A stretch of DNA of 64,000 bases from Oscillospiraceae bacterium (GCA_015067715.1 SVLY01000001.1:15071-79070), one strand, 5' to 3'; numbered from the stretch's first letter, positions 3,737-61,270 are shown. Made by a program: numbers and translations. The notes: generated by a model not told the origin, from the sequence alone.

Positions 3737-4156
3737 TTATTGTTTTGATATAGTGGCATCTAAGGCTCCCTCTGACGAGGGAGCTGTCAGCGAAGCTGAC
3801 TGAGGGAGAGAAGTTTGCACCAAACGATCAACATACTCACATACGCCGCAGAAATTTCGGTCAATATCTAAATTACAAATCCTTACTACCGTTAGATTCA
3901 TAGCATTCAAATCATTGGTCCGCTGTTCATCTTTTCTTGCCTGCTCCAACGTATAGTGCCCTCCACCATCAAGTTCAAGGATCAACCTCGCCTTGGCACA
4001 ATAAAAGTCTGCGATATAGTTTCCAATCGCTTTTTGTCTTTGAAAACGCACCGGATAGTTGCGTAAAAAATCATACCACAATTTCCGTTCCCAAGGGGTC
4101 ATATTTTTCCGCAACACCTTAGCCAAATGGATATTCTCTTTGTTATAATCTTTCAT
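3737..4156 (-). CDS. DUF559 (very-short-patch-repair-like endonuclease) domain protein
   Basis: Motifs LRKNMTPWERKLWYDFLRN, FQRQKAIGNYIADFYC and LELDGGGH. The ATG at 4156 follows GGAGGG. The last ~20 codons are read from a dispersed repeat element. The gene is visibly lower in GC than its surroundings. Confidence 0.8.
   Translation of the reverse strand: MKDYNKENIHLAKVLRKNMTPWERKLWYDFLRNYPVRFQRQKAIGNYIADFYCAKARLILELDGGGHYTLEQARKDEQRTNDLNAMNLTVVRICNLDIDRNFCGVCEYVDRLVQTSLPQSASLTAPSSEGALDATISKQ
3762..3808 (+). repeat. REP-like structured element, type A (aaggctcc..gggagctgtcagcgaagctgactgagggag)
   Basis: The same core recurs at 50812-50857 and 52500-52545. It contains the hairpin GTCAGC-gaa-GCTGAC nested inside CTCCCTC...GAGGGAG. 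Confidence 0.8.
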
Positions 4157-25924: not shown

Positions 25925-26404
25925 TCAGTCACGTCCTTTTTTATTGAATAGCTTGTGTTTTAATCCGGCAAGGCGGAACAGCGCCGGCCGGAGTCTGAGC
26001 GTTGGGTACCACACCAGCCACAGCAGTCGAAGAGAAAACGAGCGTGCAGAGCGGCGTTTTTTACCGCCCCGAAGGGTGTGACTGTCTGCTCTGGCAACGA
26101 CGGCAGAGGGCGGAATAAGCTCGCAAAAGCTTTGGGCATCGCCGTTCATAACCAGGATCCCGTCTTTTCTGAGCCTTCTCACCCTGTGGAGCACCGGGGC
26201 GCCGCCTGGACGGAGGTAGAAAAGTACGTCTCCCGGTCTGACGGGGGTGTTGACGGGGGAGAGCCATACCGTGTCTGTTCTGCTGTAGAGAAAGGGGAGC
26301 ATGCTGGAGCCCGTCACCGTGAGGGGCACCGTGGCTCCAAGGGAGATAAGCTCCTGTATTTCGCGGACACCGACGGGGGTGTCCAAAGTGCGGTTTACCG
26401 TCAT
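25925..26404 (-). CDS. S24/S26-family serine peptidase (SipW/ER-type signal-peptidase-like)
   Basis: TGSSMLP (Ser nucleophile box) and PVLHRV (His box, as in S26B enzymes), with a hydrophobic, basic C-terminus. It overlaps the upstream kinase gene by 4 nt. Confidence 0.55.
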   Translation of the reverse strand: MTVNRTLDTPVGVREIQELISLGATVPLTVTGSSMLPFLYSRTDTVWLSPVNTPVRPGDVLFYLRPGGAPVLHRVRRLRKDGILVMNGDAQSFCELIPPSAVVARADSHTLRGGKKRRSARSFSLRLLWLVWYPTLRLRPALFRLAGLKHKLFNKKGRD

Positions 26405-27867
26405 TTCTTTCCGTAGCCGTAGCGGCCGTAGTGACCGTAATGTCCGTAGCGCCCGTAGCTTCCGTAGCGGCCGTAGCCGTAGTTATAGCCGTAGCCGGAA
26501 ACGCCGGAGGACGCGCCGTTGAGCACACAGCCTAAAACCCGGGCGTTCGTTGCGCTGATAATATCTATGGCGTAGCGAATGCGCGAAATGCGGACGGTAT
26601 CCTGCCGGACGGAGAATATGACCCCGTCCGAGGCCTCGGCAATAACAGCCGGGTCGGAGATCAGCGCGCAGGGGGGAGTGTCCACGAAGATATAGTCGTA
26701 TTCGCCCCTGAGGTCACGGAAAAGCTGGCTCCAGAACTCGGTCTTCATAAGCTTCCAGAATTTTGAGGAGGGCACGTTGAAGGTCAGCAGGGTGAGCCCC
26801 AGCTTTTCCACAAAGGCGGTGTTCACAAGCCCCTCTGCCTTTTCCGGGGCAGGAGTCTTTCCATAAACAAGGGCGGAAATGCTGGGATTGCGAAGGTCCG
26901 CGTCCACAAGCAGGACCTTTTTGCCGGAGGCGGCGATCTCGGCGGCGAGGTTTACGGTGAGGGTGGTCTTTCCCTCGCCGGGAGCGGCGCTGGTGACCGT
27001 GATGACCTTTCCGCCCTCTTCGTTCTCGGTAAGGTTCAAAAGTGAGGTGCGAAGCTCACGGAGAGACTCCAAAAAGCCGTTGCCGATAAGGGGATTTGTG
27101 AGCAGAATGGAGCGGTCTATCTTCGTGCGGTGCTTTTTGAAGGTGACCTGGGGCAAAACACCCAGACCGTGCTGGTTGAGCTTTTCGTGAATGTCCTTCT
27201 TGGTGCGCACGGTGCGGCGCATGGTTGAATAGCAGATGAGCAAAAACGCGCTGATGACAATGCCGAATGCCGCTCCGATCAGTCCCTGGCGCAGGTAGTT
27301 GACTGTGTTCACAGGGTCAGTGGGCACGGAGGGCGCGGAGAGAATGGTGAGCAGGGTGTTGCCGATAACGTATTCCGCCACGAAGGGGTAGTTTTCCATG
27401 GCAGAGACGAGCACGTCGTAGGTAAGCTGGGGGTCGGAGCCCGTGGCGGTCATGGTGAACATATTGGTTCCGCTAACGGTTGAGGCCGAAAGGCTGGCGG
27501 GCATATAGGGCAGCTCAAGGTCGGTCTTGATGATATCCTGAAGAATATTGCTCTGGAGAATATAGGGGAAGGTGGACGAGAGCTGGCTTGCGGTGGAGCG
27601 GTTGTAGTAGAAGGAATAGGAGGTTATGCCGTTGGTGCCTGCGGCGTTGTCCGCAGTCTGAACGGTGAAGGTGACCGAGGCCTTGTAAACGGGGCGGTAG
27701 TTCAGCCTGCTTCTCAGCGCCGTTCCGCCGGAGCAGAGAATGATTATGGCCAGAAACAGCCACCAGAAGCGCACCGTGCCCCGCCAGAGGTCGCTGGGAT
27801 ATATCTCGAAGGGCGCCGGAGCGGAGGAGGCGCGTTCTTCTTTTTTGTCGGGCTTGGAATTACTCAA
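26401..27867 (-). CDS. Fused Wzz-domain / BY-kinase (polysaccharide biosynthesis tyrosine autokinase), paralog 2
   Basis: Two TM segments flank a Wzz-like loop. Walker A is SAAPGEGKTT and Walker A' is IFVDTPP. The C-terminal Tyr cluster is GYGYNYGYGRYGSYGRYGHYGHYGRYGYG. Start is TTG. Confidence 0.85.
   Translation of the reverse strand: MSNSKPDKKEERASSAPAPFEIYPSDLWRGTVRFWWLFLAIIILCSGGTALRSRLNYRPVYKASVTFTVQTADNAAGTNGITSYSFYYNRSTASQLSSTFPYILQSNILQDIIKTDLELPYMPASLSASTVSGTNMFTMTATGSDPQLTYDVLVSAMENYPFVAEYVIGNTLLTILSAPSVPTDPVNTVNYLRQGLIGAAFGIVISAFLLICYSTMRRTVRTKKDIHEKLNQHGLGVLPQVTFKKHRTKIDRSILLTNPLIGNGFLESLRELRTSLLNLTENEEGGKVITVTSAAPGEGKTTLTVNLAAEIAASGKKVLLVDADLRNPSISALVYGKTPAPEKAEGLVNTAFVEKLGLTLLTFNVPSSKFWKLMKTEFWSQLFRDLRGEYDYIFVDTPPCALISDPAVIAEASDGVIFSVRQDTVRISRIRYAIDIISATNARVLGCVLNGASSGVSGYGYNYGYGRYGSYGRYGHYGHYGRYGYGKK
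26411..26494 (-). repeat. Coding micro-repeat (ccgtag hexamer, encoding a Tyr-Gly-rich tail)
   Basis: About 9 exact ccgtag units within 84 nt at the 3' end of the kinase gene. Confidence 0.8.
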
Positions 27868-27886: not shown

Positions 27887-29368
27887 TTACTTATTTCCGT
27901 CCCCGTCGCTGCCGGAACCTTGGGCAGAGGAGGGGGTAAAGGCTTCGTATTTACCCTTTTTGGAATAGTGGCTTCCGTAGCCGTAGCCGGAATAACCGGA
28001 TTCGTCGGCGCCGGTCTGGCCAAAGAAGGTAAACTCGCTGTAAACGTCGTTGAGAATGCATCCGCCGAACTTCTCCCCGGAGGAAGTGAGCTTGAGCACG
28101 GCGTCGTTGATGTCGGCGGTAAGGGCTTTGTCCGTGCGGACGACCAGAAGCGAACGGTCTGCGTGGCGGCAGAGGGACGCCACGTCCGCAGAGAAGATCA
28201 TGGGGGGAGTGTCGATTATAACGTAGTCGAACTTGTTGCGGAAGAGCTCAAGGGTTTGGGGAACTCTTTCGGAGTTTATCCAGCCGGTGTAGTCCCGGCG
28301 GTGTCTTGCGTTGAGGGCAAGGTAGAGGCTGGTGTTGCGGTAGCGGCGGATCTTGAAGCTCTCAAGTGAGGTGGAGCCGGAAAGCAGAGCCGCAAAGTCG
28401 CTCTGGGCAGAAACGCTTACGCCCAGGATCTTGTAAAGGGCGGGCTTTAAAAAGTCCATATCCAAAAGGGCAACGCGGTTTCCGCGGCTGGCAAGAGCAA
28501 GGGCTATGTTTGCCGCGGCGGTGGACTTACCCTCGTTTTCCGCAACGCTGGTGATAAGGAACACGCTGTCCCCGGAGCGCCGGTGGGCGTAGGAGAGGCG
28601 GTTTGCGATCTTCTGGTAGCTTTCGGTAAAGCGGAAGTCGGAGTAGGCGCTGTTTATGAGCAGAGAGGTCTTCTTGCCCTTCAGCGCGGCGGAAAGGGGA
28701 AGCTTTTTTCTGGTGTGGGCAACGGTGCCAACCAGCTTTTCCCCCACCTTTTCGTTGAAATCGTGCTCGTCCTTGACGGTGTCCCGGGCAACGGAGATCA
28801 CCACGACGGCGGCCAGGGCGGCCAGGGCGGCGGCGCCGGCAAAGATGAACCTGTTCTGGGTGCTGATGGCGTTGGAGGGACCCTTTGGCACGGTGGGGGA
28901 GCGCATTACGTCGATAATTGCGTCCGCAAAAATGGTCTCGGAGATCCGGGGATAGACCTCGAGCACGGCGCAAAGCTCTTCGTAGGCCGTCTGGGGAGAG
29001 GATGCGGTCACGCTGAGGGTGAGGATATTGGTGTTGGGGATAACGCTGGCAGAGACCGACCCGTCAAACCATCCGCGCCCTAAGTGCTCTGCGGCGTATT
29101 CACGCATTGTGGGCTGGGAAAAGACCTCGGAAAAGATCTCCGCCATCTCGGAAGAGGCAGAAAGATTCGTGTAGGCAAGATAGGTGCCGCTCTTTGCGGT
29201 GACAATGAGGGTGGCAGAGCTTGTGTAAACGGGGCGGTAAACGCTCTTTCCGGCAACCCACACAAGAATGAGCGCGCTTATTGCGGAGAGCACCACCACC
29301 CACAGGTTTTTGAGAATGTCCCGGAGAAGGCTGTGCCATTCGATGCGGAAATCGTTGGTTCGGTTCAT
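27887..29368 (-). CDS. Fused Wzz-domain / BY-kinase, paralog 1
   Basis: Two TM segments. Walker A is SVAENEGKST, Walker A' is VIIDTPP, and LLVVRTD follows. The C-terminal Tyr cluster is GYSGYGYGSHYSKKGKY. Confidence 0.85.
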   Translation of the reverse strand: MNRTNDFRIEWHSLLRDILKNLWVVVLSAISALILVWVAGKSVYRPVYTSSATLIVTAKSGTYLAYTNLSASSEMAEIFSEVFSQPTMREYAAEHLGRGWFDGSVSASVIPNTNILTLSVTASSPQTAYEELCAVLEVYPRISETIFADAIIDVMRSPTVPKGPSNAISTQNRFIFAGAAALAALAAVVVISVARDTVKDEHDFNEKVGEKLVGTVAHTRKKLPLSAALKGKKTSLLINSAYSDFRFTESYQKIANRLSYAHRRSGDSVFLITSVAENEGKSTAAANIALALASRGNRVALLDMDFLKPALYKILGVSVSAQSDFAALLSGSTSLESFKIRRYRNTSLYLALNARHRRDYTGWINSERVPQTLELFRNKFDYVIIDTPPMIFSADVASLCRHADRSLLVVRTDKALTADINDAVLKLTSSGEKFGGCILNDVYSEFTFFGQTGADESGYSGYGYGSHYSKKGKYEAFTPSSAQGSGSDGDGNK

Positions 29369-33549: not shown

Positions 33550-33718
33550 GTCCGCAGGAAAGGGGCTTTCTGCCCGCCGAAGAAGTAAAACTTTCAGGTA
33601 AAACAGACTGTGGTCCGACGGAACTCTGGAGAATTCCGCGGTTTTCCGCGGATGCCGAAGGTGCAAGGTGCCCGTTTTGCTGCGGGCGCAAATCTCTCAG
33701 GCGAAAGGACGGAGCGCA
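33550..33718 (+). promoter_or_regulatory. Tandem glycine riboswitch (two aptamers)
   Basis: Aptamer 1: GGAAAG...GCCGAAGAAGUAA...CUUUCAGGUAAAACAGAC. Aptamer 2: CUCUGGAGAA...GCCGAAGGUGCAA...CUCUCAGGCGAAAGGAC. Both match the conserved glycine-aptamer cores. Confidence 0.85.
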
Positions 33719-33841
33719 ACATACCTCTCCCGTAAGCGGGTGATTTATTTGCGGCTGGTTCCCTTTTAGTTTTTGAGGGGCGGCTGCATTTTTTGTTTTT
33801 AGTCACGGAGGAGAAGCGGCAGAACGAGAGAGGAAAACAAT

Positions 33842-35326
33842 ATGAAGGTACTGGATTTTATTGCGGGCGACCTTAACGGCTTTATCTGGGGCTGGTTTGG
33901 AATAGCCCTTCTGCTGGGCACCGGCGTTATCATGACCGTGCTCACCAGATTTTTCCAGATAATCAGAGTTCGCCACTGGGTGAAGGAGACTGTGGGAAGC
34001 CTGTTCAAGAAGAACGTTTTCAGGCACAGCAAGGACAAGGCCTCCATCTCGCCCTTCCAGGCGCTCTGCACCGCTCTTGCCGCAACGGTCGGCACGGGCA
34101 ATATCGCAGGCGTTGCCGGCGCCATTGCCACCGGCGGTCCCGGCGCGGTGTTCTGGATGTGGGTGTCCGCATTCTTCGGAATGATGACAAACTATTCCGA
34201 AAACGTTCTCGGCATTTTCTTCCGCCGCAAGGATAAAAACGGCGAGTGGGCCGGCGGCGCAATGTACTACCTCCAGGACGGTCTGGGCGGCAAAAAGGGC
34301 TTTAAGACCGTGGGAAAGGTTCTTGCCATTCTGTTCGCCGTCTTTGCGGTGATCGCCTCCTTTGGCATCGGCAACCTTGCCCAGGCAAACACCATCGCCT
34401 CCAACATGTACGCTCAGTTTAAAATCCCCATGTGGGTCGTGGGCATCTTCCTGGCTGTGGTTGCGTCTCTTGTGATCATCGGCGGCATCAAGCGCATTGC
34501 CTCCGTCACCGAAAAGCTGGTTCCCGTTATGAGCGTTATATACATCATCGGCGCTATTGTCATTATGTTTATGAACGTCGGCCTTATCGGCGATATCTTC
34601 GGCGCCATCTTCAGATTCGCCTTCACTCCCTCTGCGGTCATCGGCGGCGGCATCGGCATTGCCATAAAGATGGGCTTTAAGCGCGGCATCTTCTCCAACG
34701 AGGCCGGCCTCGGCTCTTCCGTTATGGTCCATTCCGCATCCAGCGTTAAGGAGCCTGTCAAGCAGGGTATGTGGGGCATTTTCGAGGTCTTCTTTGACAC
34801 CATGATAATCTGCACTCTCACCGCCATCGTCGTTCTCTCCTCGGGAGTTATCGACCTTGCCACCGGCGGTCCTGCCGCAGGCTTTGAGGGGCTTGACTCC
34901 AACGTTCTTGTGGCAGACGCCTTCAGCCTCCAGTTCGGCGCCTTTGGCGGCTGGTTCGTTGCTGTGGCCATACTCTTCTTTGCCTTCTCCACCATCCTGG
35001 GCTGGAGCTACTACGGCACCCGCAGCTGGGTGTACCTCTTCGGCGAAAAGACCGCCATTATCTATAAGGTCGTTTTCATCGCTGTTATCTTCGTAAGCAC
35101 CCTTCTCAAGGGGGACATGGCCGCTCTTCCCTGGAACATCTCCGACACCTTCAACGGTCTGATGATGCTCCCCAACCTTATCGGCGTTCTCGCCCTCTCG
35201 GGTATGGTCATGAAGATCACCGCAAACTACGTAAAGCGTAAGATAAAGGGCCAGCCCATCGAGCCCATGCTCTCTTTCGACCCCGAGATCCAGAAGGCTC
35301 ACGCGGCCACTCTTGACGAGGAATAA
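33842..35326 (+). CDS. Alanine/glycine:cation symporter (AGCS family)
   Basis: 494 aa. Motifs SPFQALCTALAATVGTGNIAGVA and FSNEAGLGSS are typical of the AGCS family. Confidence 0.9.
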   Translation: MKVLDFIAGDLNGFIWGWFGIALLLGTGVIMTVLTRFFQIIRVRHWVKETVGSLFKKNVFRHSKDKASISPFQALCTALAATVGTGNIAGVAGAIATGGPGAVFWMWVSAFFGMMTNYSENVLGIFFRRKDKNGEWAGGAMYYLQDGLGGKKGFKTVGKVLAILFAVFAVIASFGIGNLAQANTIASNMYAQFKIPMWVVGIFLAVVASLVIIGGIKRIASVTEKLVPVMSVIYIIGAIVIMFMNVGLIGDIFGAIFRFAFTPSAVIGGGIGIAIKMGFKRGIFSNEAGLGSSVMVHSASSVKEPVKQGMWGIFEVFFDTMIICTLTAIVVLSSGVIDLATGGPAAGFEGLDSNVLVADAFSLQFGAFGGWFVAVAILFFAFSTILGWSYYGTRSWVYLFGEKTAIIYKVVFIAVIFVSTLLKGDMAALPWNISDTFNGLMMLPNLIGVLALSGMVMKITANYVKRKIKGQPIEPMLSFDPEIQKAHAATLDEE

Positions 35327-35348
35327 TGCCCGCGATAACAGGATAACT

Positions 35349-35389
35349 AAAAACCAGTCATCCCGGAAAAAACGGGATGACTGGTTTTT
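35349..35389. terminator. Bidirectional Rho-independent terminator
   Basis: A5-ccagtcatcccg ... cgggatgactgg-T5, a 12-bp perfect stem between convergent genes. Confidence 0.8.
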
Positions 35390-35406
35390 GCTTATATATG
35401 CTTTTT

Positions 35407-36702
35407 TCAGTCCTTTTTGGGGGCGTGCTTCATAATTCCGAACCACAGGAAGAGCACCAGCGCCGCGCAGAACAGAACGGCCATTGCGGAGACCACCTGC
35501 TGGGCGTAGAGAGGAAGACCCAAAAAGCGGTTTCCGTTATTTTGAATATAGGTGACAAGGGGGCTCACCGCAAGGGTGGTGAAGAAGCCTGCCAGACCGT
35601 AGACCGTGCGGGACAGGGCGAGAGCCTCGGTGCGCAGGGCGTAGGGGGCGTAGTCCAGAATAAGGTTGGTAAGGGCACTGTTGATGCCCGCCATGGAGAT
35701 GGCAGTGAGAACGTAATAGGCCGTGTAGAATACCTTGCCGTTGGCAGGGGCGGTGAACACGTTGATGAGATATCCCGCTCCGGCGATGGCGATGCAGAAG
35801 CACATCATCCGGGCAAAGCTGTGCCTGTCCGCAAAGCGCCCCCAAAACCGGGAGACCAGGGCGCGCACGATGGCGTAGACGATGCCGAGAACGGCCACGA
35901 AGGTGAGTGAAAATCCCAGCTCCCGTATCTGATAGGTGCCGTAGAAGGGGACGGAGCAGCCGTTTGTGATGCTCCACAGGGCGCTGACTCCCACGGCCAT
36001 GAGATAGAATTTGTTTTTGGCAAGAGTCTTTATGTTGGCAAAGGGGTTTGACCGCTTTCCGACAGGGGCGATCACGGTTTCACGGGTGAGGATGATGGTG
36101 ATGCTCTGGAGGATCATGAGCACGAATATGGTCACGCCGCAGAGAATGAACGCGCCGGAGAGGTTTCCCGCCGCCTCATAGCGGTCGACGATATTGCCCA
36201 TCACCGTGGAGAAGATCATGCCGCCGATAAGGGAGACGATCTCCTTGTTGGCGGTGAACACGCCGCGTTTTCTGTCGTCCACAAGGGACATGAACCAGTT
36301 GAGCTTGGGCGAGCCCACAAGCTGGAGCAGAATGTTTGCCGTGAGCACGCAGGCCACGAAGGCGACGGGCTTAAGGCCTGAGGGGATGGGAACGATGGGG
36401 ATCACGTAAATAAGGCAGAAGAACATCTGGGTGAACAGGGTCACCGGGATGACCAGCCACTTTACCCGTTTTATTCCCCCCATGAAAAGGGAGAAAAGCT
36501 GAACGGCGCAGCCAAGGGAGACAAAGGATGAGATTATGCCGGTCAGACTGTCGGAAATGCCGATGCTGGTAGAGACCTTTGCAAGAAATGCGCCGCCGGT
36601 AAGCAGGGCGACGAAATACTCAAGTGCGGCTTCAATTATGACGTAGAGACGGCTTTGGCGGTAGATATCTTTTTCTTCGGTGGACATGGAAAACGGTTGC
36701 AC
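35407..36702 (-). CDS. MFS transporter
   Basis: 431 aa, about 12 TM segments. The start is uncertain: GTG at 36702 or ATG at 36687. It is divergent from the mannosidase cassette. Confidence 0.75.
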   Translation of the reverse strand: MQPFSMSTEEKDIYRQSRLYVIIEAALEYFVALLTGGAFLAKVSTSIGISDSLTGIISSFVSLGCAVQLFSLFMGGIKRVKWLVIPVTLFTQMFFCLIYVIPIVPIPSGLKPVAFVACVLTANILLQLVGSPKLNWFMSLVDDRKRGVFTANKEIVSLIGGMIFSTVMGNIVDRYEAAGNLSGAFILCGVTIFVLMILQSITIILTRETVIAPVGKRSNPFANIKTLAKNKFYLMAVGVSALWSITNGCSVPFYGTYQIRELGFSLTFVAVLGIVYAIVRALVSRFWGRFADRHSFARMMCFCIAIAGAGYLINVFTAPANGKVFYTAYYVLTAISMAGINSALTNLILDYAPYALRTEALALSRTVYGLAGFFTTLAVSPLVTYIQNNGNRFLGLPLYAQQVVSAMAVLFCAALVLFLWFGIMKHAPKKD

Positions 36703-50636: not shown

Positions 50637-50646
50637 CTTCATATAC

Positions 50647-50676
50647 GGGACGGATGAGACCATCCGTCCCTTTTTT
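50647..50676 (+). terminator. Rho-independent terminator of the permease gene
   Basis: gggacggatg-agac-catccgtccc followed by T6. Confidence 0.85.
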
Positions 50677-50898
50677 GTTAGGGGGCGAACCGGGATGATA
50701 CGCGGGAGCCCTCTCAGTCTCGCTCCGCGAGCCAGCTCCCCCGAAAGGGGGAGCCAAGGGGGGGCATACTTTTATACATAGCACCATTCTGACCTTTACA
50801 GGCACAATCTCAAGGCTCCTCCTTCGGGGGAGCTGTCAGCGAAGCTGACTGAGGGAGTACCCGCTTTCGATGTTGTAACAAACTGATCTGACGGGATA
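50647..50898 (+). repeat. Direct repeat, copy 1 (terminator plus REP-B plus REP-A composite)
   Basis: About 250 bp that recurs at 52123-52165 plus 52382-52586 with only a handful of differences. Confidence 0.9.
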
Positions 50899-51109
50899 TA
50901 GCGGCAAGACCGGCGAACGCAGTTTACCCGTAGGGCAGTAGCAAGCCTCAGCCCTGCGTATCTCCCGGGCGAAAAATCCCGTCAGGGGCGAATATGGTTC
51001 AAAGAAGAGGTTATTGTATTTGTGTCAGGAAAGGAGTAAACTGTGTTTGCAACCGAAGAGAGTGTCGGCCGACCTGCCGGAGGTTAAAAACTATAACAGG
51101 AGAAAAAAT

Positions 51110-52111
51110 ATGAACGTCTATTTTGGAGAAAACCTTCGTCGCCTTCGCATGGAGCGGGGGATGACCCAGGAAGGCCTGGGTGACCATCTTGGTATCTCAT
51201 TTCAGTCGGTCAGCAAATGGGAACGGGGAGAGACCCTGCCGGACATTGAAATGCTTTCCTGCATTGCGGCATTTTTTGATGTCACAACAGATTCACTTAT
51301 CGGAATGGAGCGTCACCTACGCGAAAAGGAAGTAAACCAAGCTATAGGCCGATATTCCGATCTCTGGTCAAAGGGTGATTACTGCGGAGCCTTTGATGTG
51401 ATGAAGTCTGCCGTTACGCGCTTTCCGGGAGAGTACGCCCTTTGGGTGAGATATCTCAATGTTATGTGCTGGATAGGCAGAAGTGATGCAGATAAAGCAA
51501 CTAAATTCAAACCCGAAGCAGATGCGGTATATTCCAGAATTGCCGACTACTGCACTGAAGACAATGTTCGTATTTGGGCAAAAACGATTATGTGCAGGTA
51601 CTACAGATTTCTTTGTGATAGAAATCTCGGTGTGACTGAAGAGAAAGTTTACGAGATGCTTTCCGGATTGCCTCTGATGCAGAACTGCCGGGATTATCTG
51701 GGGGTAACTCTGCTTTCCGGGGTGGCGAAGTCCGAACAGCGGAAAAAGACGGTTGCAGAGCTTGGGTATTTGCTATCTGCGGTGGCAACGGGATATGATA
51801 AACCCGGCGAGTTGGAGTGCGCTATTGCTACCCTTGAAGCACTTTTCCCAGAGGGCGATTTTGGAAAGGCGACGGTGAATGTTGCCTTGCTCTATGCCAA
51901 TCTTTGCAGAGCATACAAAACGATGGGGCGCCGCGAGGAAGCCTCGGTAGCGTATGAAAAGGCATTGGGCATTGCATCTGCCTTTGACGGAGTCTGTGAG
52001 CTTGAGCATAGTTCACCACTTGTCAGAGAACTTTCTGTTAGCAAAAATTCCGTACCTATGGCACAGGCGGGATCTCTTGTGAACCGCGTGAAGACCTGCG
52101 CGGAGAAATAG
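51110..52111 (+). CDS. XRE-family HTH regulator with a helical (TPR-like) C-terminal domain
   Basis: LRRLRMERGMTQEGLGDHLGISFQSVSKWERGETLP HTH_3 motif. The ATG at 51110 follows AGGAG. GC is visibly lower than in the flanks. Confidence 0.75.
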   Translation: MNVYFGENLRRLRMERGMTQEGLGDHLGISFQSVSKWERGETLPDIEMLSCIAAFFDVTTDSLIGMERHLREKEVNQAIGRYSDLWSKGDYCGAFDVMKSAVTRFPGEYALWVRYLNVMCWIGRSDADKATKFKPEADAVYSRIADYCTEDNVRIWAKTIMCRYYRFLCDRNLGVTEEKVYEMLSGLPLMQNCRDYLGVTLLSGVAKSEQRKKTVAELGYLLSAVATGYDKPGELECAIATLEALFPEGDFGKATVNVALLYANLCRAYKTMGRREEASVAYEKALGIASAFDGVCELEHSSPLVRELSVSKNSVPMAQAGSLVNRVKTCAEK

Positions 52112-52122
52112 TTGGCAAAAAA

Positions 52123-52152
52123 TGGACGGATGAGAGCATCCGTCCATTTTTT
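52123..52152 (+). terminator. Rho-independent terminator of the HTH-TPR gene
   Basis: tggacggatg-agag-catccgtcca followed by T6. It is a paralog of the terminator at 50647, with a compensatory change in the basal base pair. Confidence 0.85.
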
Positions 52153-52586
52153 GTTAGGGGGCGAATGAATATTGATTCGTAGGGACGCCCCTCCCGGGGC
52201 ATCCGAAAAAAGGTTTGCCTTCGGTACAATATCTCAACCGGGACGAGACGTGCTGACGGAATCCCCCCTACCCCTCACCCGGCAAGGGGGGCTTTTTGTT
52301 GCGGTTGGATTTGGAGAAGCGTAAAAACGGTAGGGGTGAAGGCGAAAATCGCCCCTATGCGTATGCTGTGAAGGGAAAAGTGGGATGATACGCGGGAGCC
52401 CTCTCAGTCTCGCTCCGCGAGCCAGCTCCCCCGAAAGGGGGAGCCAAGGGGGGTGTACTTTTATACATAGCACCATCTGACCTTTACAGGCACAATCTCA
52501 AGGCTCCTCCTCCGGGGGAGCTGTCAGCGAAGCTGACTGAGGGAGTACCCGCTTTCGATGTTGTAACAAACTGATCCGGCGGGATA
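52123..52586 (+). repeat. Direct repeat, copy 2, interrupted by a 216-bp insertion (52166-52381)
   Basis: The alignment to 50647-50898 is collinear except for the insertion, which itself carries palindromic cgtagggNcg...-type motifs. Confidence 0.9.
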
Positions 52587-52685
52587 ACGCTGTTCGGGAT
52601 GCAGGAAAAAGTTTTTCTTGCATAGACCGGGTCCATCTGTTATAATCAAAACGTGATCCAAAACTTAACGGAGGAACGGTTTGCT

Positions 52686-54212
52686 ATGACGGAAGAACGG
52701 AAAGATCTTATTTCAAACGCAAGGGAATACCGCGAGCTGATGCTTTCGGACCCCTATCGCCCGACCTATCATTTTGCAATACCCGATGACGACGGACGTC
52801 CCGGCGACCCCAACGGCGCCTTTTACGCCGACGGCAGATACCACCTTATGTATCTCTACCGCCGCCGCTCAACAAACGCCTTCCACTGGGGACATATCTC
52901 GTCCCGTGACCTTGTGCACTGGCGCTCCCACCCCGACGCCATCGGCGCTCTCGAGGGGGACGAGGGCTGTTTTTCCGGCGGCGCATTTGTAGACGACGAC
53001 GGCACGGCTTACCTCAGCTTCTGGAAATTCCCCTCCAAAAACGGCAAGGACAAGGGCGGCATAGCCCTTGCAAAGTCCCGTCCGCCCTACGACGTTTGGG
53101 AGCGCGATCTTCCCCTTGTGCTTGAGACCGGAGACACCCCCTGGGGCACGGCGGTGCTTGACGGGGAAAAGCTCGGGTGCGCCGACCCCAGCAATATGTG
53201 GAAAAAAGACGGCAAATATTATCTTCAGCTGGGCTCCCTCTGCGCCATGCAGGCCTGGGGAGCGGAAGATGAAAACTACCGGGGAGACTGGACGGAGCTT
53301 TTCTGCTCCGAGGATATGCAAAAGTGGACCTATCTCGGCCGGTTCTATCAGCGGAAAAAGGACAATTCCTGGACCGACGAGACCGAGGACGATATGTGCC
53401 CCTCCTTCCTGCCCCTGCCCAAAAAGCGCACCGGCGGCGAGGCGTCCGGCAAATACCTTCAGCTCTTCATCGCCCACAACAAGGGCACCCAGTATTATAT
53501 CGGCGACTACCGGGACGACAGGTTCTTCCCCGAGATCCACGGCCGCATGAGCTGGGTCGACAACACCTATTTCGCGCCGGAAGCTCTGATCGACGCCAAC
53601 GGACGGCAGATAATGTGGGCGTGGCTGCTGGATAACCCCGAGGGCGACGATTTCGACCGTTTTTCGTGGAGCGGAGTGTTCTCCTTCCCCCGGGAACTCT
53701 GGCTTGGTGATGACGGTACTCTTCGCATGGCTCCGGCAAGAGAGCTTGACAGCCTCTGCTACAACCCTCAGATATTTGAGGAGACGAAGCTCTCCGGCGA
53801 GAAAAAGCTCAATGTGAAAAACGGCGAGGCCTTCAGAATGAGCTTCTTTGCCGACGTTACCCACAAGGCAGGCGTTATGCTTAAACAGAGCGCCGACGGA
53901 AAAGAGTACGTCTGCATCTACATGGACAAAGCGGCGGGCAAGCTGGTCTTCGACAGCCGCACCTGTACCCACGACGGCCGTCCCGCCCTTGAGGAAGCCC
54001 CCTTTGTACTCGCAGAGGGCGAAAAGGCGAAGTTCGATATCTTTGTGGACAAGTCCGTGGTCGAGGTCTACGTAAACGACCGCCAGGCCATCTGCCGCAG
54101 AGTGTTCTCTTCCGACCCGAAAAATTCCACGGCCGTTTCCCTCTGGGCCCAGGGCGAAGCGGAGTTTTCCTACGTCTCCGCCTGGGAAGTTGACTCGGCA
54201 AATATGTATTGA
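52686..54212 (+). CDS. Glycoside hydrolase family 32 (beta-fructofuranosidase/levanase-type) protein
   Basis: YRPTYHFAIP...GDPNGAFYADGRYHLMY, HWGHISSRDLVHW, FSGGAF and ADPS follow the GH32 block order. No signal peptide. The ORF opens at 52653 (GTG). Confidence 0.75.
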   Translation: MTEERKDLISNAREYRELMLSDPYRPTYHFAIPDDDGRPGDPNGAFYADGRYHLMYLYRRRSTNAFHWGHISSRDLVHWRSHPDAIGALEGDEGCFSGGAFVDDDGTAYLSFWKFPSKNGKDKGGIALAKSRPPYDVWERDLPLVLETGDTPWGTAVLDGEKLGCADPSNMWKKDGKYYLQLGSLCAMQAWGAEDENYRGDWTELFCSEDMQKWTYLGRFYQRKKDNSWTDETEDDMCPSFLPLPKKRTGGEASGKYLQLFIAHNKGTQYYIGDYRDDRFFPEIHGRMSWVDNTYFAPEALIDANGRQIMWAWLLDNPEGDDFDRFSWSGVFSFPRELWLGDDGTLRMAPARELDSLCYNPQIFEETKLSGEKKLNVKNGEAFRMSFFADVTHKAGVMLKQSADGKEYVCIYMDKAAGKLVFDSRTCTHDGRPALEEAPFVLAEGEKAKFDIFVDKSVVEVYVNDRQAICRRVFSSDPKNSTAVSLWAQGEAEFSYVSAWEVDSANMY

Positions 54213-54219
54213 CAGAACA

Positions 54220-54263
54220 AATCCCCCCAAATTCCCGAAAGGAATTTGGGGGGATTATTTTTG
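54220..54263 (+). terminator. Rho-independent terminator of the GH32 gene
   Basis: aatccccccaaattcc-cgaaa-ggaatttggggggatt, a 16-bp perfect stem followed by ATTTTT. Confidence 0.85.
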
Positions 54264-54274
54264 CGCTAAAGTCA

Positions 54275-54603
54275 GCGAAGAGAATTGAACGTTTGCCGTA
54301 AGGCAAGTTTCCGTCCCTTTTGACGGAAACAGTTCAATTCAGATGTGAAAAACCGCGGGTTTTTCACATTAGCCTTATGCAAAACACTTGCGAAGAGAAT
54401 TGAACGTTTGCCGCAAGGCAAGTTTCCGTCCCTTCTGACGGAAACAGTTCAATTCAGATGTGAAAAACCGCGGGTTTTTCACATTAGCCTTATGCAAAGC
54501 ACTTGCGAAGAGAATTGAACGTTTGCCGCAAGGCAAGTTTCCGTCCCTTCTGACGGAAACAGTTCAATTCAGATGTGAAAAACCGAGGGTTTTTCACATT
54601 AGC
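54275..54603 (+). repeat. Tandem array of a 115-bp structured module (2 full copies plus 1 copy truncated at about 99 bp)
   Basis: Unit starts (gcgaagagaattgaac) at 54275, 54390 and 54505. Each unit contains nested inverted repeats consistent with a three-way junction, plus a 10-bp hairpin. Confidence 0.9.
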
Positions 54604-55826
54604 ATGAGCTGGTTCTTAACCTCAACACCTGCGGCGGTGAGCTTTTCGACGGTGTCGAGAAGCTTTTCCTCGGCCATTTCGGCGGTGATAAAGGCGCCGT
54701 CGAAGATGGAAACGGAGCTGCAGGGGATGACCTCGATCTCTCCGAAGAGCTTTTCTGCGGCGGCATAGGCGGCGTCTGTGTTGCCGTTGACCCGAACCAT
54801 GTAGCGGTGGGCAACCTTGCGGCAGTCGGAGACGATGCTGTCCCCGGCGGTCCATTCAATGCGGCGGTCATCTCCGCAGGTGCGGAGAGTGTCGATAACG
54901 TCGGCAACCACGGCGCTGGCGGTGGGCAGCTTGCCGGCACCCCGGCCGTAGAACATGCAGTCGTCAACGGAGTCGCCGTGGACCATGACCCCGTTAAACA
55001 CACCGTCGATGGTGGAGAGGGGGCAGGAGGTGGGAATGAGGAAGGGGGAAACGGAGATATAGATCTTTCCGTTTTCCAGCTTTTTCGCTCTGCCCAAAAG
55101 CTTTATGCGGCAATCCTTTGCGGCGGCAAAGGCGATGTCCTCAGGGGCGATATTGGTGATGCCCTCGATCTTTACTTCCTCGGGGAGCACCTGGGTGCCA
55201 AAGGCAAGGGATGCCAGAATGCAGATCTTTCTGCAGGCGTCGTGGCCCAGAATGTCTGCGGCGGGGTCGGCTTCGGCGTAGCCCAGAGCCTGAGCCTCCT
55301 TCAGAGCGGCGTCGAAGGAGAGGGAGGCGGTGATCATTCTGGTGAGGATATAGTTCGTTGTGCCGTTAAGAATGCCGCAGATCTCGGTGATCTCGTTTGC
55401 GGCAAGGCACTGGCTCATGGGGCGGATGACGGGAATGCCGCCGCCAACACTTGCCTCGAACATATAGCGCACGTTGTTTGCCTTCGCCAGCTCAAAAAGC
55501 TCTACCGCGTGGTAGGCAACGAGCTCCTTGTTTGAGGTGACGACGTTCTTTCCTGCGGCAAGGGCGCGGCGGGTGAACTCGTAGGCGACGCGCCTGCCGC
55601 CGATGGCCTCGACGACGGTCTCGACCTCGGGGTCGTTTTCAACAACGGAGAAATCCTTTACGATCTTATCCCCGTAGGGGTCATTTTCAAAATCCCGGAT
55701 ATCGACGATATATTTAACGTAAACAGGCTTGCCTGTTTTTTTCTGAAGCATTTCACGGTGCGTTTCGATGATCTCGACAACGCCGCTTCCAACCGTTCCG
55801 TATCCAACTACTGCAACTGCGGCCAT
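54594..55826 (-). CDS. hom: Homoserine dehydrogenase
   Basis: VAVVGYGTVGSGV NAD-binding start, NKELVA and GILNGTTNYIL core motifs, and a C-terminal ACT-like region. The stop codon lies inside the last repeat unit. Confidence 0.9.
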   Translation of the reverse strand: MAAVAVVGYGTVGSGVVEIIETHREMLQKKTGKPVYVKYIVDIRDFENDPYGDKIVKDFSVVENDPEVETVVEAIGGRRVAYEFTRRALAAGKNVVTSNKELVAYHAVELFELAKANNVRYMFEASVGGGIPVIRPMSQCLAANEITEICGILNGTTNYILTRMITASLSFDAALKEAQALGYAEADPAADILGHDACRKICILASLAFGTQVLPEEVKIEGITNIAPEDIAFAAAKDCRIKLLGRAKKLENGKIYISVSPFLIPTSCPLSTIDGVFNGVMVHGDSVDDCMFYGRGAGKLPTASAVVADVIDTLRTCGDDRRIEWTAGDSIVSDCRKVAHRYMVRVNGNTDAAYAAAEKLFGEIEVIPCSSVSIFDGAFITAEMAEEKLLDTVEKLTAAGVEVKNQLMLM

Positions 55827-59848: not shown

Positions 59849-61270
59849 TTATGCGAGAAAGATCTCGCGGACGGATTTTTCGTCTATGCCGGAGCCGATA
59901 ACGCAGATGCGGCCGGTGATGTCGGCGCTGCCCCTGCGGATATTGCGCTCGCCGGGAACGTAGTCGAAATGGAACCAGCTTCCGTCCGCCCCTGCAACAA
60001 TGCCCTTGGCGCGGAGAACCACTCCGCAGACACCCTCGTCGAAGAAGGCGAGAATGCTGTCCAGCTCGGTCTCGGTATAACGTCTGCCGGTCTCTATGCC
60101 GCAGCTGGTGAAGACCTCGTCTGCATGATGGCCGTGATCACCGTGAGCGTGACTGCCGTGAGCGTGACAGTGGTGGCCATGGTGTTCCTGGTTCTGCTCA
60201 CGGCTGTGTTCACCGTGAGCGTGACAGTGGTGCTCATGGTGTTCCTGGTTCTGCTCACGGCTGTGTTCATGACAATGGTCATGAACACCGGAGTGCTCCT
60301 CATGGTCATGAACACCCGAGTGCCCCTCATGGTCGTGAGCGTGATGATGCTCGTGTTCATGCTCATGGTCGTGGTCATGGTCATGGTCATGGTCATGGCA
60401 GCCGCAATCGCAGTGTTCGTCATGATGGTGATGTTCGTGGTCATGGCATCCGCAGTCACAGTCTTCGTCGTGATGGTGCTCCTCATGGTCGTGATCATGA
60501 CAGCCGCAATCGCAATGCTCACCGTGAGCGTGATGATGGTGGCCATGGTTTTCCTGGTCCTGCTCACGGCCGTGTTCATGACAGTGGTCATGAACACCCG
60601 AGTGCTCCTCATGCTCATCGTGATGGTGATGATGGTGGGCTTCGGCGTTGAAGCGTTCAAGGGCTTCGGCAAGGGTGTTTTTGTTTTCAATGGCGTCTCT
60701 GAGCTGGTCGCCGGAGAGCTGATCCCAGGGGGTCGTGACAAGGGTTGCGCCGGGGTTGTGCTGGCGGATGAGCTCAACACAGCGGCTAAGCTTTGCTTCG
60801 TCCAGACTGTCGGTACGGCTGAGAACAACGGTGCCCGCGTTTTCAAGCTGGTCAAGGAAGAACTCGCCGAAGTTCTTGATGTAGATGCGGCATTTGTTTG
60901 CGTCCACAACGGCAACCAGCGAGCCGATCTCCGCTCTCTCGCCGCAGGCGTTTTCGGCGGCGCGAACAACGTCGCTGAGCTTGCCAACGCCGGAGGGCTC
61001 GATGAATATCCTGTCGGGAGAAAACTCGTCCAGAACCTTTTCAAGAGCCTTGCCAAAATCGCCCACGAGGCTGCAGCAGATACAGCCGGAGTTCATTTCG
61101 GTTATCTCGATGCCGGCTTCTTTCAGAAAACCGCCGTCAATGCCGATCTCGCCGAACTCGTTTTCAATGAGAACGAGCTTCTCTCCGGCGTAGGCCTCTT
61201 TGATGAGCTTTTTTATAAGTGTTGTCTTTCCCGCGCCGAGAAAGCCGGAAAATATGTCTATCTTTGTCAT
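59849..61270 (-). CDS. COG0523 (CobW/ZigA/YjiA-type) metallochaperone GTPase with a giant His/Cys-rich insert
   Basis: Motifs SGFLGAGKTTL, ENEFGE, the GCICCS (CxCC) metal site, IEPSG, and a CobW_C-like end (VLRAKGIV). The insert spans about aa 209-385. Confidence 0.85.
   Translation of the reverse strand: MTKIDIFSGFLGAGKTTLIKKLIKEAYAGEKLVLIENEFGEIGIDGGFLKEAGIEITEMNSGCICCSLVGDFGKALEKVLDEFSPDRIFIEPSGVGKLSDVVRAAENACGERAEIGSLVAVVDANKCRIYIKNFGEFFLDQLENAGTVVLSRTDSLDEAKLSRCVELIRQHNPGATLVTTPWDQLSGDQLRDAIENKNTLAEALERFNAEAHHHHHHDEHEEHSGVHDHCHEHGREQDQENHGHHHHAHGEHCDCGCHDHDHEEHHHDEDCDCGCHDHEHHHHDEHCDCGCHDHDHDHDHDHEHEHEHHHAHDHEGHSGVHDHEEHSGVHDHCHEHSREQNQEHHEHHCHAHGEHSREQNQEHHGHHCHAHGSHAHGDHGHHADEVFTSCGIETGRRYTETELDSILAFFDEGVCGVVLRAKGIVAGADGSWFHFDYVPGERNIRRGSADITGRICVIGSGIDEKSVREIFLA
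60116..60646 (-). repeat. Internally repetitive coding segment (His/Asp/Glu/Cys-rich modules)
   Basis: Repeated peptide modules: CDCGCHDH x3, HSGVHDH x3, and HSREQNQEHH.HHCHAHG x2. The same repeats are visible at the DNA level. Confidence 0.85.

Follow-up and report, generated by a model that had tools for sequence, protein, structure and literature searches.

A 115-bp unit is repeated nearly three times at the 3′ end of the homoserine dehydrogenase gene (hom) of an Oscillospiraceae bacterium, and the question that this locus raises is whether the repeat is a new compact RNA fold in its own right or a structure that belongs to hom. The stretch of DNA analysed, 64,000 nucleotides in length, is referred to as the window. 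Tandem Repeats Finder reported 54275-54603 as the sole long-period array of the window (period 115, 2.9 copies, 98% matches, no indels, score 630), and a repeat search of the window placed the unit starts, on the + strand, at 54275, 54390 and 54505, in agreement with the three copies at a 115-nt period that an earlier note on this DNA had claimed. Pfam agreed with that note on GH32 and hom as the flanking convergent genes. A covariance model (R1), built from an alignment of nine full units (A1), scored the window units at 122-126 bits on the - strand. In the hom sense, the first unit starts at the hom stop codon. The features of the locus were:

52653-54212, + strand: GH32 glycoside hydrolase gene, convergent with hom, Pfam PF00251 and PF08244, outside the element
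54220-54256, both strands: bidirectional intrinsic terminator, 16-17-bp stem, T-rich tails each way
54275-54603, - strand: tandem array of 2.9 × 115-bp unit, from Tandem Repeats Finder, repeat search and covariance model R1
54282-54340, - strand: P1/P2/P3 domain, hom-distal copy, with P2 at 54293-54306 and P3 at 54307-54330
54343-54369, - strand: P4 hairpin, hom-distal copy, from the repeat search
54370-54389, - strand: 20-nt linker, second copy, differing by one substitution
54397-54455, - strand: P1/P2/P3 domain, middle copy, from RNAfold and the repeat search
54458-54484, - strand: P4 hairpin, middle copy, from the repeat search
54485-54504, - strand: inter-unit linker, 20 nt, hom-sense sequence AAGTGCTTTGCATAAGGCTA
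54512-54570, - strand: P1/P2/P3 three-way-junction domain, hom-proximal copy, with P1 formed by 54512-54520 and 54562-54570
54573-54599, - strand: P4 hairpin, hom-proximal copy, 12-bp stem ATGTGAAAAACC/GGTTTTTCACAT
54594-55826, - strand: hom, homoserine dehydrogenase, 410 aa, Pfam PF00742 and PF03447

RNAfold of a single unit returned exactly the fold that had been proposed, a P1/P2/P3 junction plus P4. Helices P1 to P3 were as described in the earlier note, and P4 had 12 bp rather than the 10 bp given there. P1 (GAATTGAAC/GTTCAATTC; 54282-54290 with 54332-54340) was repeated at +115 and +230, P2 had a TTGCC/GGCAA stem, and P3 paired GTTTCCGTC with GACGGAAAC (54307-54315 with 54322-54330). The P1/P2 hairpin began 4 nt past P4. 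The middle unit folded at -47.0 kcal/mol on the + strand (z = -6.6 vs dinucleotide shuffles), and at -45.5 kcal/mol on the - strand, as the mirror structure (z = -5.9). Both strands of every unit folded about equally, because all helices are perfect Watson-Crick. Stem mismatches in relatives comprised three events that are A.C in the hom sense (G.U antisense) and one event of the opposite kind, a difference that was not significant. The three-way junction had just 3 unpaired nucleotides, and no unpaired position was conserved; lacking a conserved unpaired core, it is unlike ribozymes or ligand-binding RNAs, and a ribozyme was rejected for the same reason.

The shared parts of the copies differed by exactly four substitutions (unit positions 25, 46, 110 and 82). 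Direct comparison of the copies bore out the observation that none of them is in a stem: all were in loops or linker, and with 49 of 115 positions (43%) unpaired the naive chance of this is 0.033. Four events are too few to carry weight alone, and the stem avoidance was suggestive, not strong. The period was not a multiple of 3 and there was no conserved ORF; a coding repeat was rejected on the period.

Repeats of shorter period were observed in coding sequence of the window. In the gene of a CobW-domain GTPase (59849-61270, - strand), a stretch rich in His, Asp and Cys (HDHDHDHEHEHEHHH, CDCGCHDH) is encoded by several overlapping tandem repeats at 60156-60514 (periods 57, 27, 18, 12, 6 and 48); it has the appearance of a metal-binding insert of metallochaperone type. 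At the 3′ end of gene 26401-27867 (- strand), a period-9 repeat (26416-26497; GCCGTAGCG) encodes the Tyr/Gly-rich C-terminal tail (YGYNYGYGRYGSYGRYGHYGHYGRYGYGKK*) of a ParA/AAA_31-type ATPase, a tail that resembles the tyrosine clusters of capsule BY-kinases; a paralogue of the ATPase adjoins at 27887-29368.

The terminator at 54220-54256, missed in the earlier note, separates the GH32 stop (54212) from the array. As it is common to GH32 (+ strand) and hom (- strand), the array would lie in the hom transcript and outside that of GH32. In the hom sense, the 5′ arm of the hom-proximal P4 opens with six bases that are the last Met codon and the hom TGA (54596-54594, - strand), and the overlap of the third unit with the hom stop was thus as previously described. 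In the terminator scan, only 54220-54256 qualified. The stems of P1 to P4 are followed by ATCTGAA, TCTCTTC and similar sequences, and since none of these stems runs into a T-tract, the unit is not a terminator. No promoter-like sites were found by scan on either strand of 53800-55000 and no per-unit promoters were seen by eye in the linkers; a per-unit promoter was rejected. By this architecture of genes and terminator, the array is inferred to be the hom 3′ UTR on the - strand.

Two further terminator-like hairpins, at 50640-50677 and 52116-52153, follow the CitMHS and HTH/TPR genes and have a common core (GGACGGATG...CATCCGTCC, then TTTTTTG); they may be related terminators. A GACGGA motif is present in both, and in P3 too. 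The 49 long ORFs of the window are ordinary chromosomal genes (sugar hydrolases, transporters, capsule synthesis).

The hom loci of relatives were compared in hom-sense orientation. Hom led to uncultured Oscillospiraceae/Ruminococcaceae MAGs, and the window protein was 100% identical to P0124 / MBE6936971.1 (Ruminococcaceae MAG), although an exact look-up of its sequence found no record. Of the 18 further sequences in the two 90% Hom clusters (P0121-P0136), the comparison covered P0123, P0127 and P0136. Two partial Hom proteins with 92% identity (P0007 and P0009), whose contigs break inside hom, were excluded from the comparison of 3′ regions. The loci compared were:

Window: Hom 100%; 3 (2.9) units, B-type with P3
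L042: Hom 98.3%; 1 unit, without linker; colinear DNA ~97.5% identical; terminator and GH32 as in the window
L041: Hom 93.7%; 0 units; plain terminator directly after the stop
L043: Hom 89.8%; 3.5 units, alternating A-B-A-B′
L001: Hom 88.8%; ~1.5 units, a B unit without P3 plus a decayed unit
L002: Hom 86.8%; ~1.5 units, an A unit with P1 = GAAAAGAAT/ATTCTTTTC plus a decayed unit
L003-L010: Hom ≤83%; 0 units; co-directional genes after hom

Modules were thus recovered at the hom stop in four other genomes (L042, L043, L001 and L002), the occurrence elsewhere on which the earlier note had made its structured element depend. The first P4 overlapped the hom stop in 5 of 5 carriers, and the terminator was distal to the array; that of L002 has its T-tract solely in the hom sense. 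The module was therefore always between the hom stop and hom's terminator, a position in which it would be transcribed on the - strand, as hom 3′ UTR. Downstream neighbours differed among the five carrier genomes; L001 had another convergent neighbour, without Pfam match, and the downstream sequence of L043 was in common with L001. Unit periods across loci were 115, 113, 91 or 90 nt. The A units of L043 consisted of P4, P1 (GAAAAGACCG/CGGTCTTTTC) and P2, and its B units of P4, P1 (GAATTGAAC/GTTCAATTC), P3 and P2, as in the window. Units lacking P3 were those of type A in L043 and L002 and the unit of L001; P3 is optional, and therefore so is the three-way junction, and the compact junction is not supported as the functional unit.

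The single large difference between the window and L042 was at the array, where the window has two additional units (230 bp). Because a 97.5%-identical genome has exactly one unit, the triplication is a strain-level copy-number variant and not a designed array of three, and the expansion in the window looks recent, since its units differ by ~1% and the conspecific genome has one. The array fits a strain-variable intergenic minisatellite (VNTR), its repeats being head-to-tail and their copy number differing between closely related genomes. The 20-nt linker of the window was missing in the single-copy allele of L042 and unrelated to the linkers of L043, L001 and L002; it had no further copy within the window, and its match to the hom end was limited to its last 6 nt (GCTAAT). 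The distal units L043_4, L001_2 and L002_2 were decayed, with microhomology-type deletions that fit an origin of copy-number change by recombination or slippage. The module is dispensable, as L041 is a closer relative than several carriers and does not have it.

Compared with L003-L010, L041 and L001, the region from hom to the CitMHS/FeoB genes (~50640-54600) was a variable islet, with an HTH-TPR regulator and GH32 in the window, a GFO_IDH oxidoreductase in L004-L009, and TPR_12, DUF4037 and one more gene without Pfam match in L003. The module lay right at the hom border of this break in synteny, and every locus in which it was seen had a convergent gene next. In L001, stretches at 2200-2256 and 3958-4153 resemble the 3′ end of the window GH32 gene (82-84% identity), one of them just outside a convergent 408-aa ORF lacking a Pfam match, which suggests that a GH32 3′ end was rearranged or duplicated beside the repeat module.

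Pairs in A1 were counted for the structure proposed in the earlier note. Paired cells amounted to 98.5%, vs 93.2% in shuffles, and 0 of 500 shuffles matched the observed value. In five pairs both partners had changed (four pairs of P1 and one at the bottom of the P4 stem), in none a single partner, and the covariation score was 0.106 vs 0.028 when shuffled. All pairing and covariation measures collapsed when partners were slid by 1 to 3 columns. The P2 and P3 stems had no sequence variation. Before its stop codon, hom of L001 has CTT (Leu) in place of ATG (Met), and the P4 3′ arm has AAG in place of CAT, so a perfect 12-bp P4 is kept by a compensated change that involves a coding position. Substitutions that break stems in homologues had been named as grounds for a neutral duplication; the helices were instead kept through compensatory changes, and the element is therefore not merely a chance duplication. 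The idea of a neutral tandem duplication of the hom terminator region held as to a recent change in copy number, and failed in that the unit is conserved and is not a terminator. The conserved core is, from this alignment, two predicted hairpins, P4 (10-12 bp, with the hom stop) and P1/P2, and what expanded in the window is a conserved module of greater age, joined to the stop codon of hom. Stem avoidance within one array was weak evidence, and orthologous loci gave the informative signal, a lesson for genome scanning.

The array is best read as a locus-specific REP-like 3′-UTR repeat of strain-variable copy number, not a new compact RNA fold, and the module is most likely a structured tail of the hom mRNA, not a new free-standing RNA gene. 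A cis-acting hom 3′-UTR RNA is the most economical explanation because the module follows hom whatever the neighbour, precedes hom's terminator and keeps its helices. The full reading, a strain-level expansion of a REP/BIME-like cis-acting structure fused to the hom stop, is tentatively preferred at somewhat short of an even chance, its function being inferred by analogy. P4 would form solely when no ribosome is terminating on hom, and a ribosome at the stop would have to melt it, so that P4 possibly brakes translation termination. Exonucleases working 3′→5′ would be held up by P4 and by the very stable P1-P3 domain, and in these ways the module would determine how stable the hom mRNA is and how much Hom is made. 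Copy number may shift by unequal recombination or slippage between direct repeats of 38 nt, made up of P4 and CTGAATTGAAC.

Several observations weigh against a cis-acting hom tail. The strand is read from gene and terminator geometry, both strands folding about equally, and the mismatches lean slightly, if not significantly, to the other strand (3 events vs 1). L041 does without the module at a Hom identity of 93.7%. A strong terminator hairpin already guards the 3′ end, which leaves no obvious need for an additional stabiliser. The sequences of P4, P2 and P3 are invariant rather than covarying, which would suit recognition by a protein or a DNA-level role as well as it suits an RNA role.

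The most probable alternative, though an unlikely one, is that the palindromes act as DNA, either as cruciform-capable or protein-bound sites or as what a site-specific mobile element, inserted at the hom 3′ end, left behind or targets. Sequence conservation would then come from protein recognition or recent spread, not from RNA function. Invariant P4, P2 and P3 stems beside hom DNA only ~80% identical are what such a site would give, as are perfect palindromes without strand asymmetry. Its distribution is patchy (missing in L041 with Hom at 93.7%, present in L043, L001 and L002 at 87-90%), and synteny breaks at the hom 3′ end, past which different relatives carry different cargo. However, the site is constant and tied to hom whatever the neighbour, there was no target-site duplication and no terminal inverted repeat besides P1, and no transposase, RAYT, integrase, Cas, reverse transcriptase or ToxN-like domain was found among the window's 49 long ORFs.

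The distribution searches bear on mobility as well. With R1, true units scored 79-126 bits and were all at hom 3′ ends, and there was no other copy in 162 kb (the 64-kb window plus 98 kb of related DNA); parts of the unit were not found elsewhere in the 64-kb window. Plasmid and phage sequences showed no match to the array by blastn, and a search for P4 followed by CTGAA in JGI metagenomes and IMG/VR gave 0 matches, so that plasmid, phage and viral collections lent nothing to a mobile element. The P4 pattern had 28 matches in 185,579 representative genomes, all in unrelated contexts and none followed by CTGAATTGAAC; this genome and its close relatives were not among the matches, and multiple related P4 copies were not found in any one representative genome. 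As all 28 contexts were unrelated, the module is not a widespread family. A hom-based search of JGI metagenome loci returned only relatives of ≤70% identity, none with the module, and R1 found nothing in these more distant hom loci nor at the P4-only matches. On these searches, the module is lineage-restricted, to uncultured Oscillospiraceae of the gut or rumen that form a narrow clade.

Rfam matches at E ≤ 10 on both strands were at best 12-21 bits (E 0.76-6.7) against gathering thresholds of 48-195 bits, and nothing reached a gathering threshold in the arrays of the window, L001, L002, L042 and L043, in line with the earlier view that no named RNA family is involved; the families compared include riboswitches and the self-cleaving ribozymes (hammerhead, twister and others). 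That the array is not a CRISPR was also upheld, since the entire 115-bp unit repeats without unique spacers, and the window holds no Cas domain. An integron attC was rejected by eye on the mismatch of P1 to the RYYYAAC/GTTRRRY cores, and a CRP- or cre-type operator, also by eye, on wrong spacing between the P4 ends TGTGA...TCACA. A glycine riboswitch aptamer (RF00504, 56.8 bits) was observed elsewhere in the window at 33616-33722 (+ strand), directly 5′ of a sodium:alanine symporter gene (33842-35326, + strand; PF01235); a longer ORF without domain matches overlaps this gene on the opposite strand (33803-35446) and is probably spurious.

A functionless minisatellite, in which an ancestral hom hairpin was partly duplicated and copy number changes neutrally, is rather unlikely. 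Its perfect arms would result from template-switch (quasipalindrome) repair and concerted evolution, not from selection. Near-identical genomes that differ in copy number are compatible with it, as are the decayed distal units with their microhomology-type deletions, the loss in L041 without visible consequence, a period that is not a multiple of 3 with no conserved ORF, and a stem avoidance that consists of four substitutions (p about 0.03). Against it, unit cores of the window and L043 were 92-93% identical, and hom DNA was 79.8% identical; a neutral segment is unexpected at such identity beside an essential gene at 80%, and the module being more conserved than that gene is evidence against a purely neutral repeat. 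Linkers and terminators adjoining the module were unalignable between the same two genomes, and four P1 pairs were fully compensated with no half-changed intermediates. A non-coding module can thus exceed an adjacent essential gene in conservation in uncultured Oscillospiraceae.

Processing of the hom 3′ UTR into stable unit RNAs, as trans-acting sRNAs or a protein sponge, is quite improbable. Each unit would be a constant P4 handle with a variable, covarying P1/P2 hairpin, with or without P3. Constant (P4, linker) and variable (P1) parts do alternate, also in the A-B-A-B order of L043, and P4 is conserved at the sequence level. On the other hand, loops and single-stranded parts, the would-be seeds, were the least conserved positions, there was no linked partner protein gene, and a single copy suffices in L042. 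If true, this would be a third layout beside CRISPR and ToxI-type arrays, with the number and type (A/B) of units varying between strains.

The reading put forward in the earlier note, a structured non-coding RNA on the + strand, as a 3′ extension of GH32 or from its own promoter, is the least supported and highly improbable: the + fold is marginally more stable, 3 of 4 stem mismatch events in relatives are G.U on that strand and the P2 loop is GNRA in the window and L042 (GCAA/GTAA), but the loop is GACA (L043-B, L001), ATTA (L002-A) or TGTTAG (L043-A) elsewhere, a 16-bp terminator with T-tract stands between GH32 and the array, no promoter-like site was found on either strand at 53800-55000, the junction is optional with P3 and has 3 unpaired nucleotides and no conserved unpaired core, and the module tracks hom rather than GH32, with a different neighbour in L001 and L043 downstream sequence like that of L001.

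Among known systems, type III antitoxin RNAs (ToxI, CptI, TenpI) consist of 34-55-nt units directly upstream of a toxin endoribonuclease gene. The array is similar to them in that a structured RNA unit recurs in direct tandem order in a genome of Clostridia type, but no ORF follows it on either strand: the terminator and the GH32 end follow on the - strand and hom antisense on the + strand, and in the lack of a toxin gene this class was rejected. MIRU-VNTRs of Mycobacterium tuberculosis occupy ~40 loci, have 40-100 bp repeats and are not hairpin-rich; some MIRU classes contain small ORFs for translational coupling. They share with the module intergenic tandem repeats, strain-variable copy number and a first unit that overlaps the stop of the upstream gene, whereas most of the module periods (115, 113, 91 and 90 nt) are not multiples of 3, and the gene that comes next is convergent. 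BOX elements of Streptococcus pneumoniae (boxA-boxB(n)-boxC) are dispersed at >100 loci per genome. As intergenic modular repeats of Firmicutes with a variable-number tandem internal module and strong predicted secondary structure they are comparable, but there is no sequence similarity, and the module here is tied to the stop codon of one gene.

The closest comparison is with the REP/BIME elements of Enterobacteria and Pseudomonas. REPs are found chiefly past the ends of ORFs and between genes that converge, are proposed to work at the RNA level, and carry a tag, an unpaired GTAG or CGTC at one end of the palindrome (PMC3733652). They are dispersed, high-copy and linked to RAYT transposases, whereas the module was at one locus only (64-kb window, 162 kb in total) and no transposase domain was found among the window's 49 long ORFs. 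The module is without a GTAG/CGTC tag, P4 being flanked as CTA/ATGTGA...TCACAT/CTGAA (slashes marking the ends of P4), and its units are direct, not inverted, repeats of two or three different hairpins each. In common are stable palindromes just past stops and between convergent genes, which in the window and in the other four loci lie between the hom stop and a terminator (in the window, one shared with GH32), arrays with conserved linkers and strain-variable copy number, and the alternation of two unit types, as in L043 A-B-A-B. The RNA roles proposed for REPs, namely mRNA stabilisation, transcription attenuation and ribosome stalling near the stop (PMC3733652, PMC12306157), would suit the module; the latter source summarises that ribosomes stall at REPs lying no more than 15 nt from a stop codon, and that translation is reduced (PMC12306157). 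REP/BIME is therefore best taken as an analogy of mechanism, not membership, as dispersal and tag are missing. If the array does act as the structured tail of the hom mRNA, it would be a clean natural gene-specific REP-like 3′-UTR structure outside Proteobacteria, with a first hairpin that sequesters the stop codon, and its natural alleles of 0, 1, ~2, 3 and ~4 units would serve for testing the effects of 3′-UTR hairpins on mRNA decay and translation termination.
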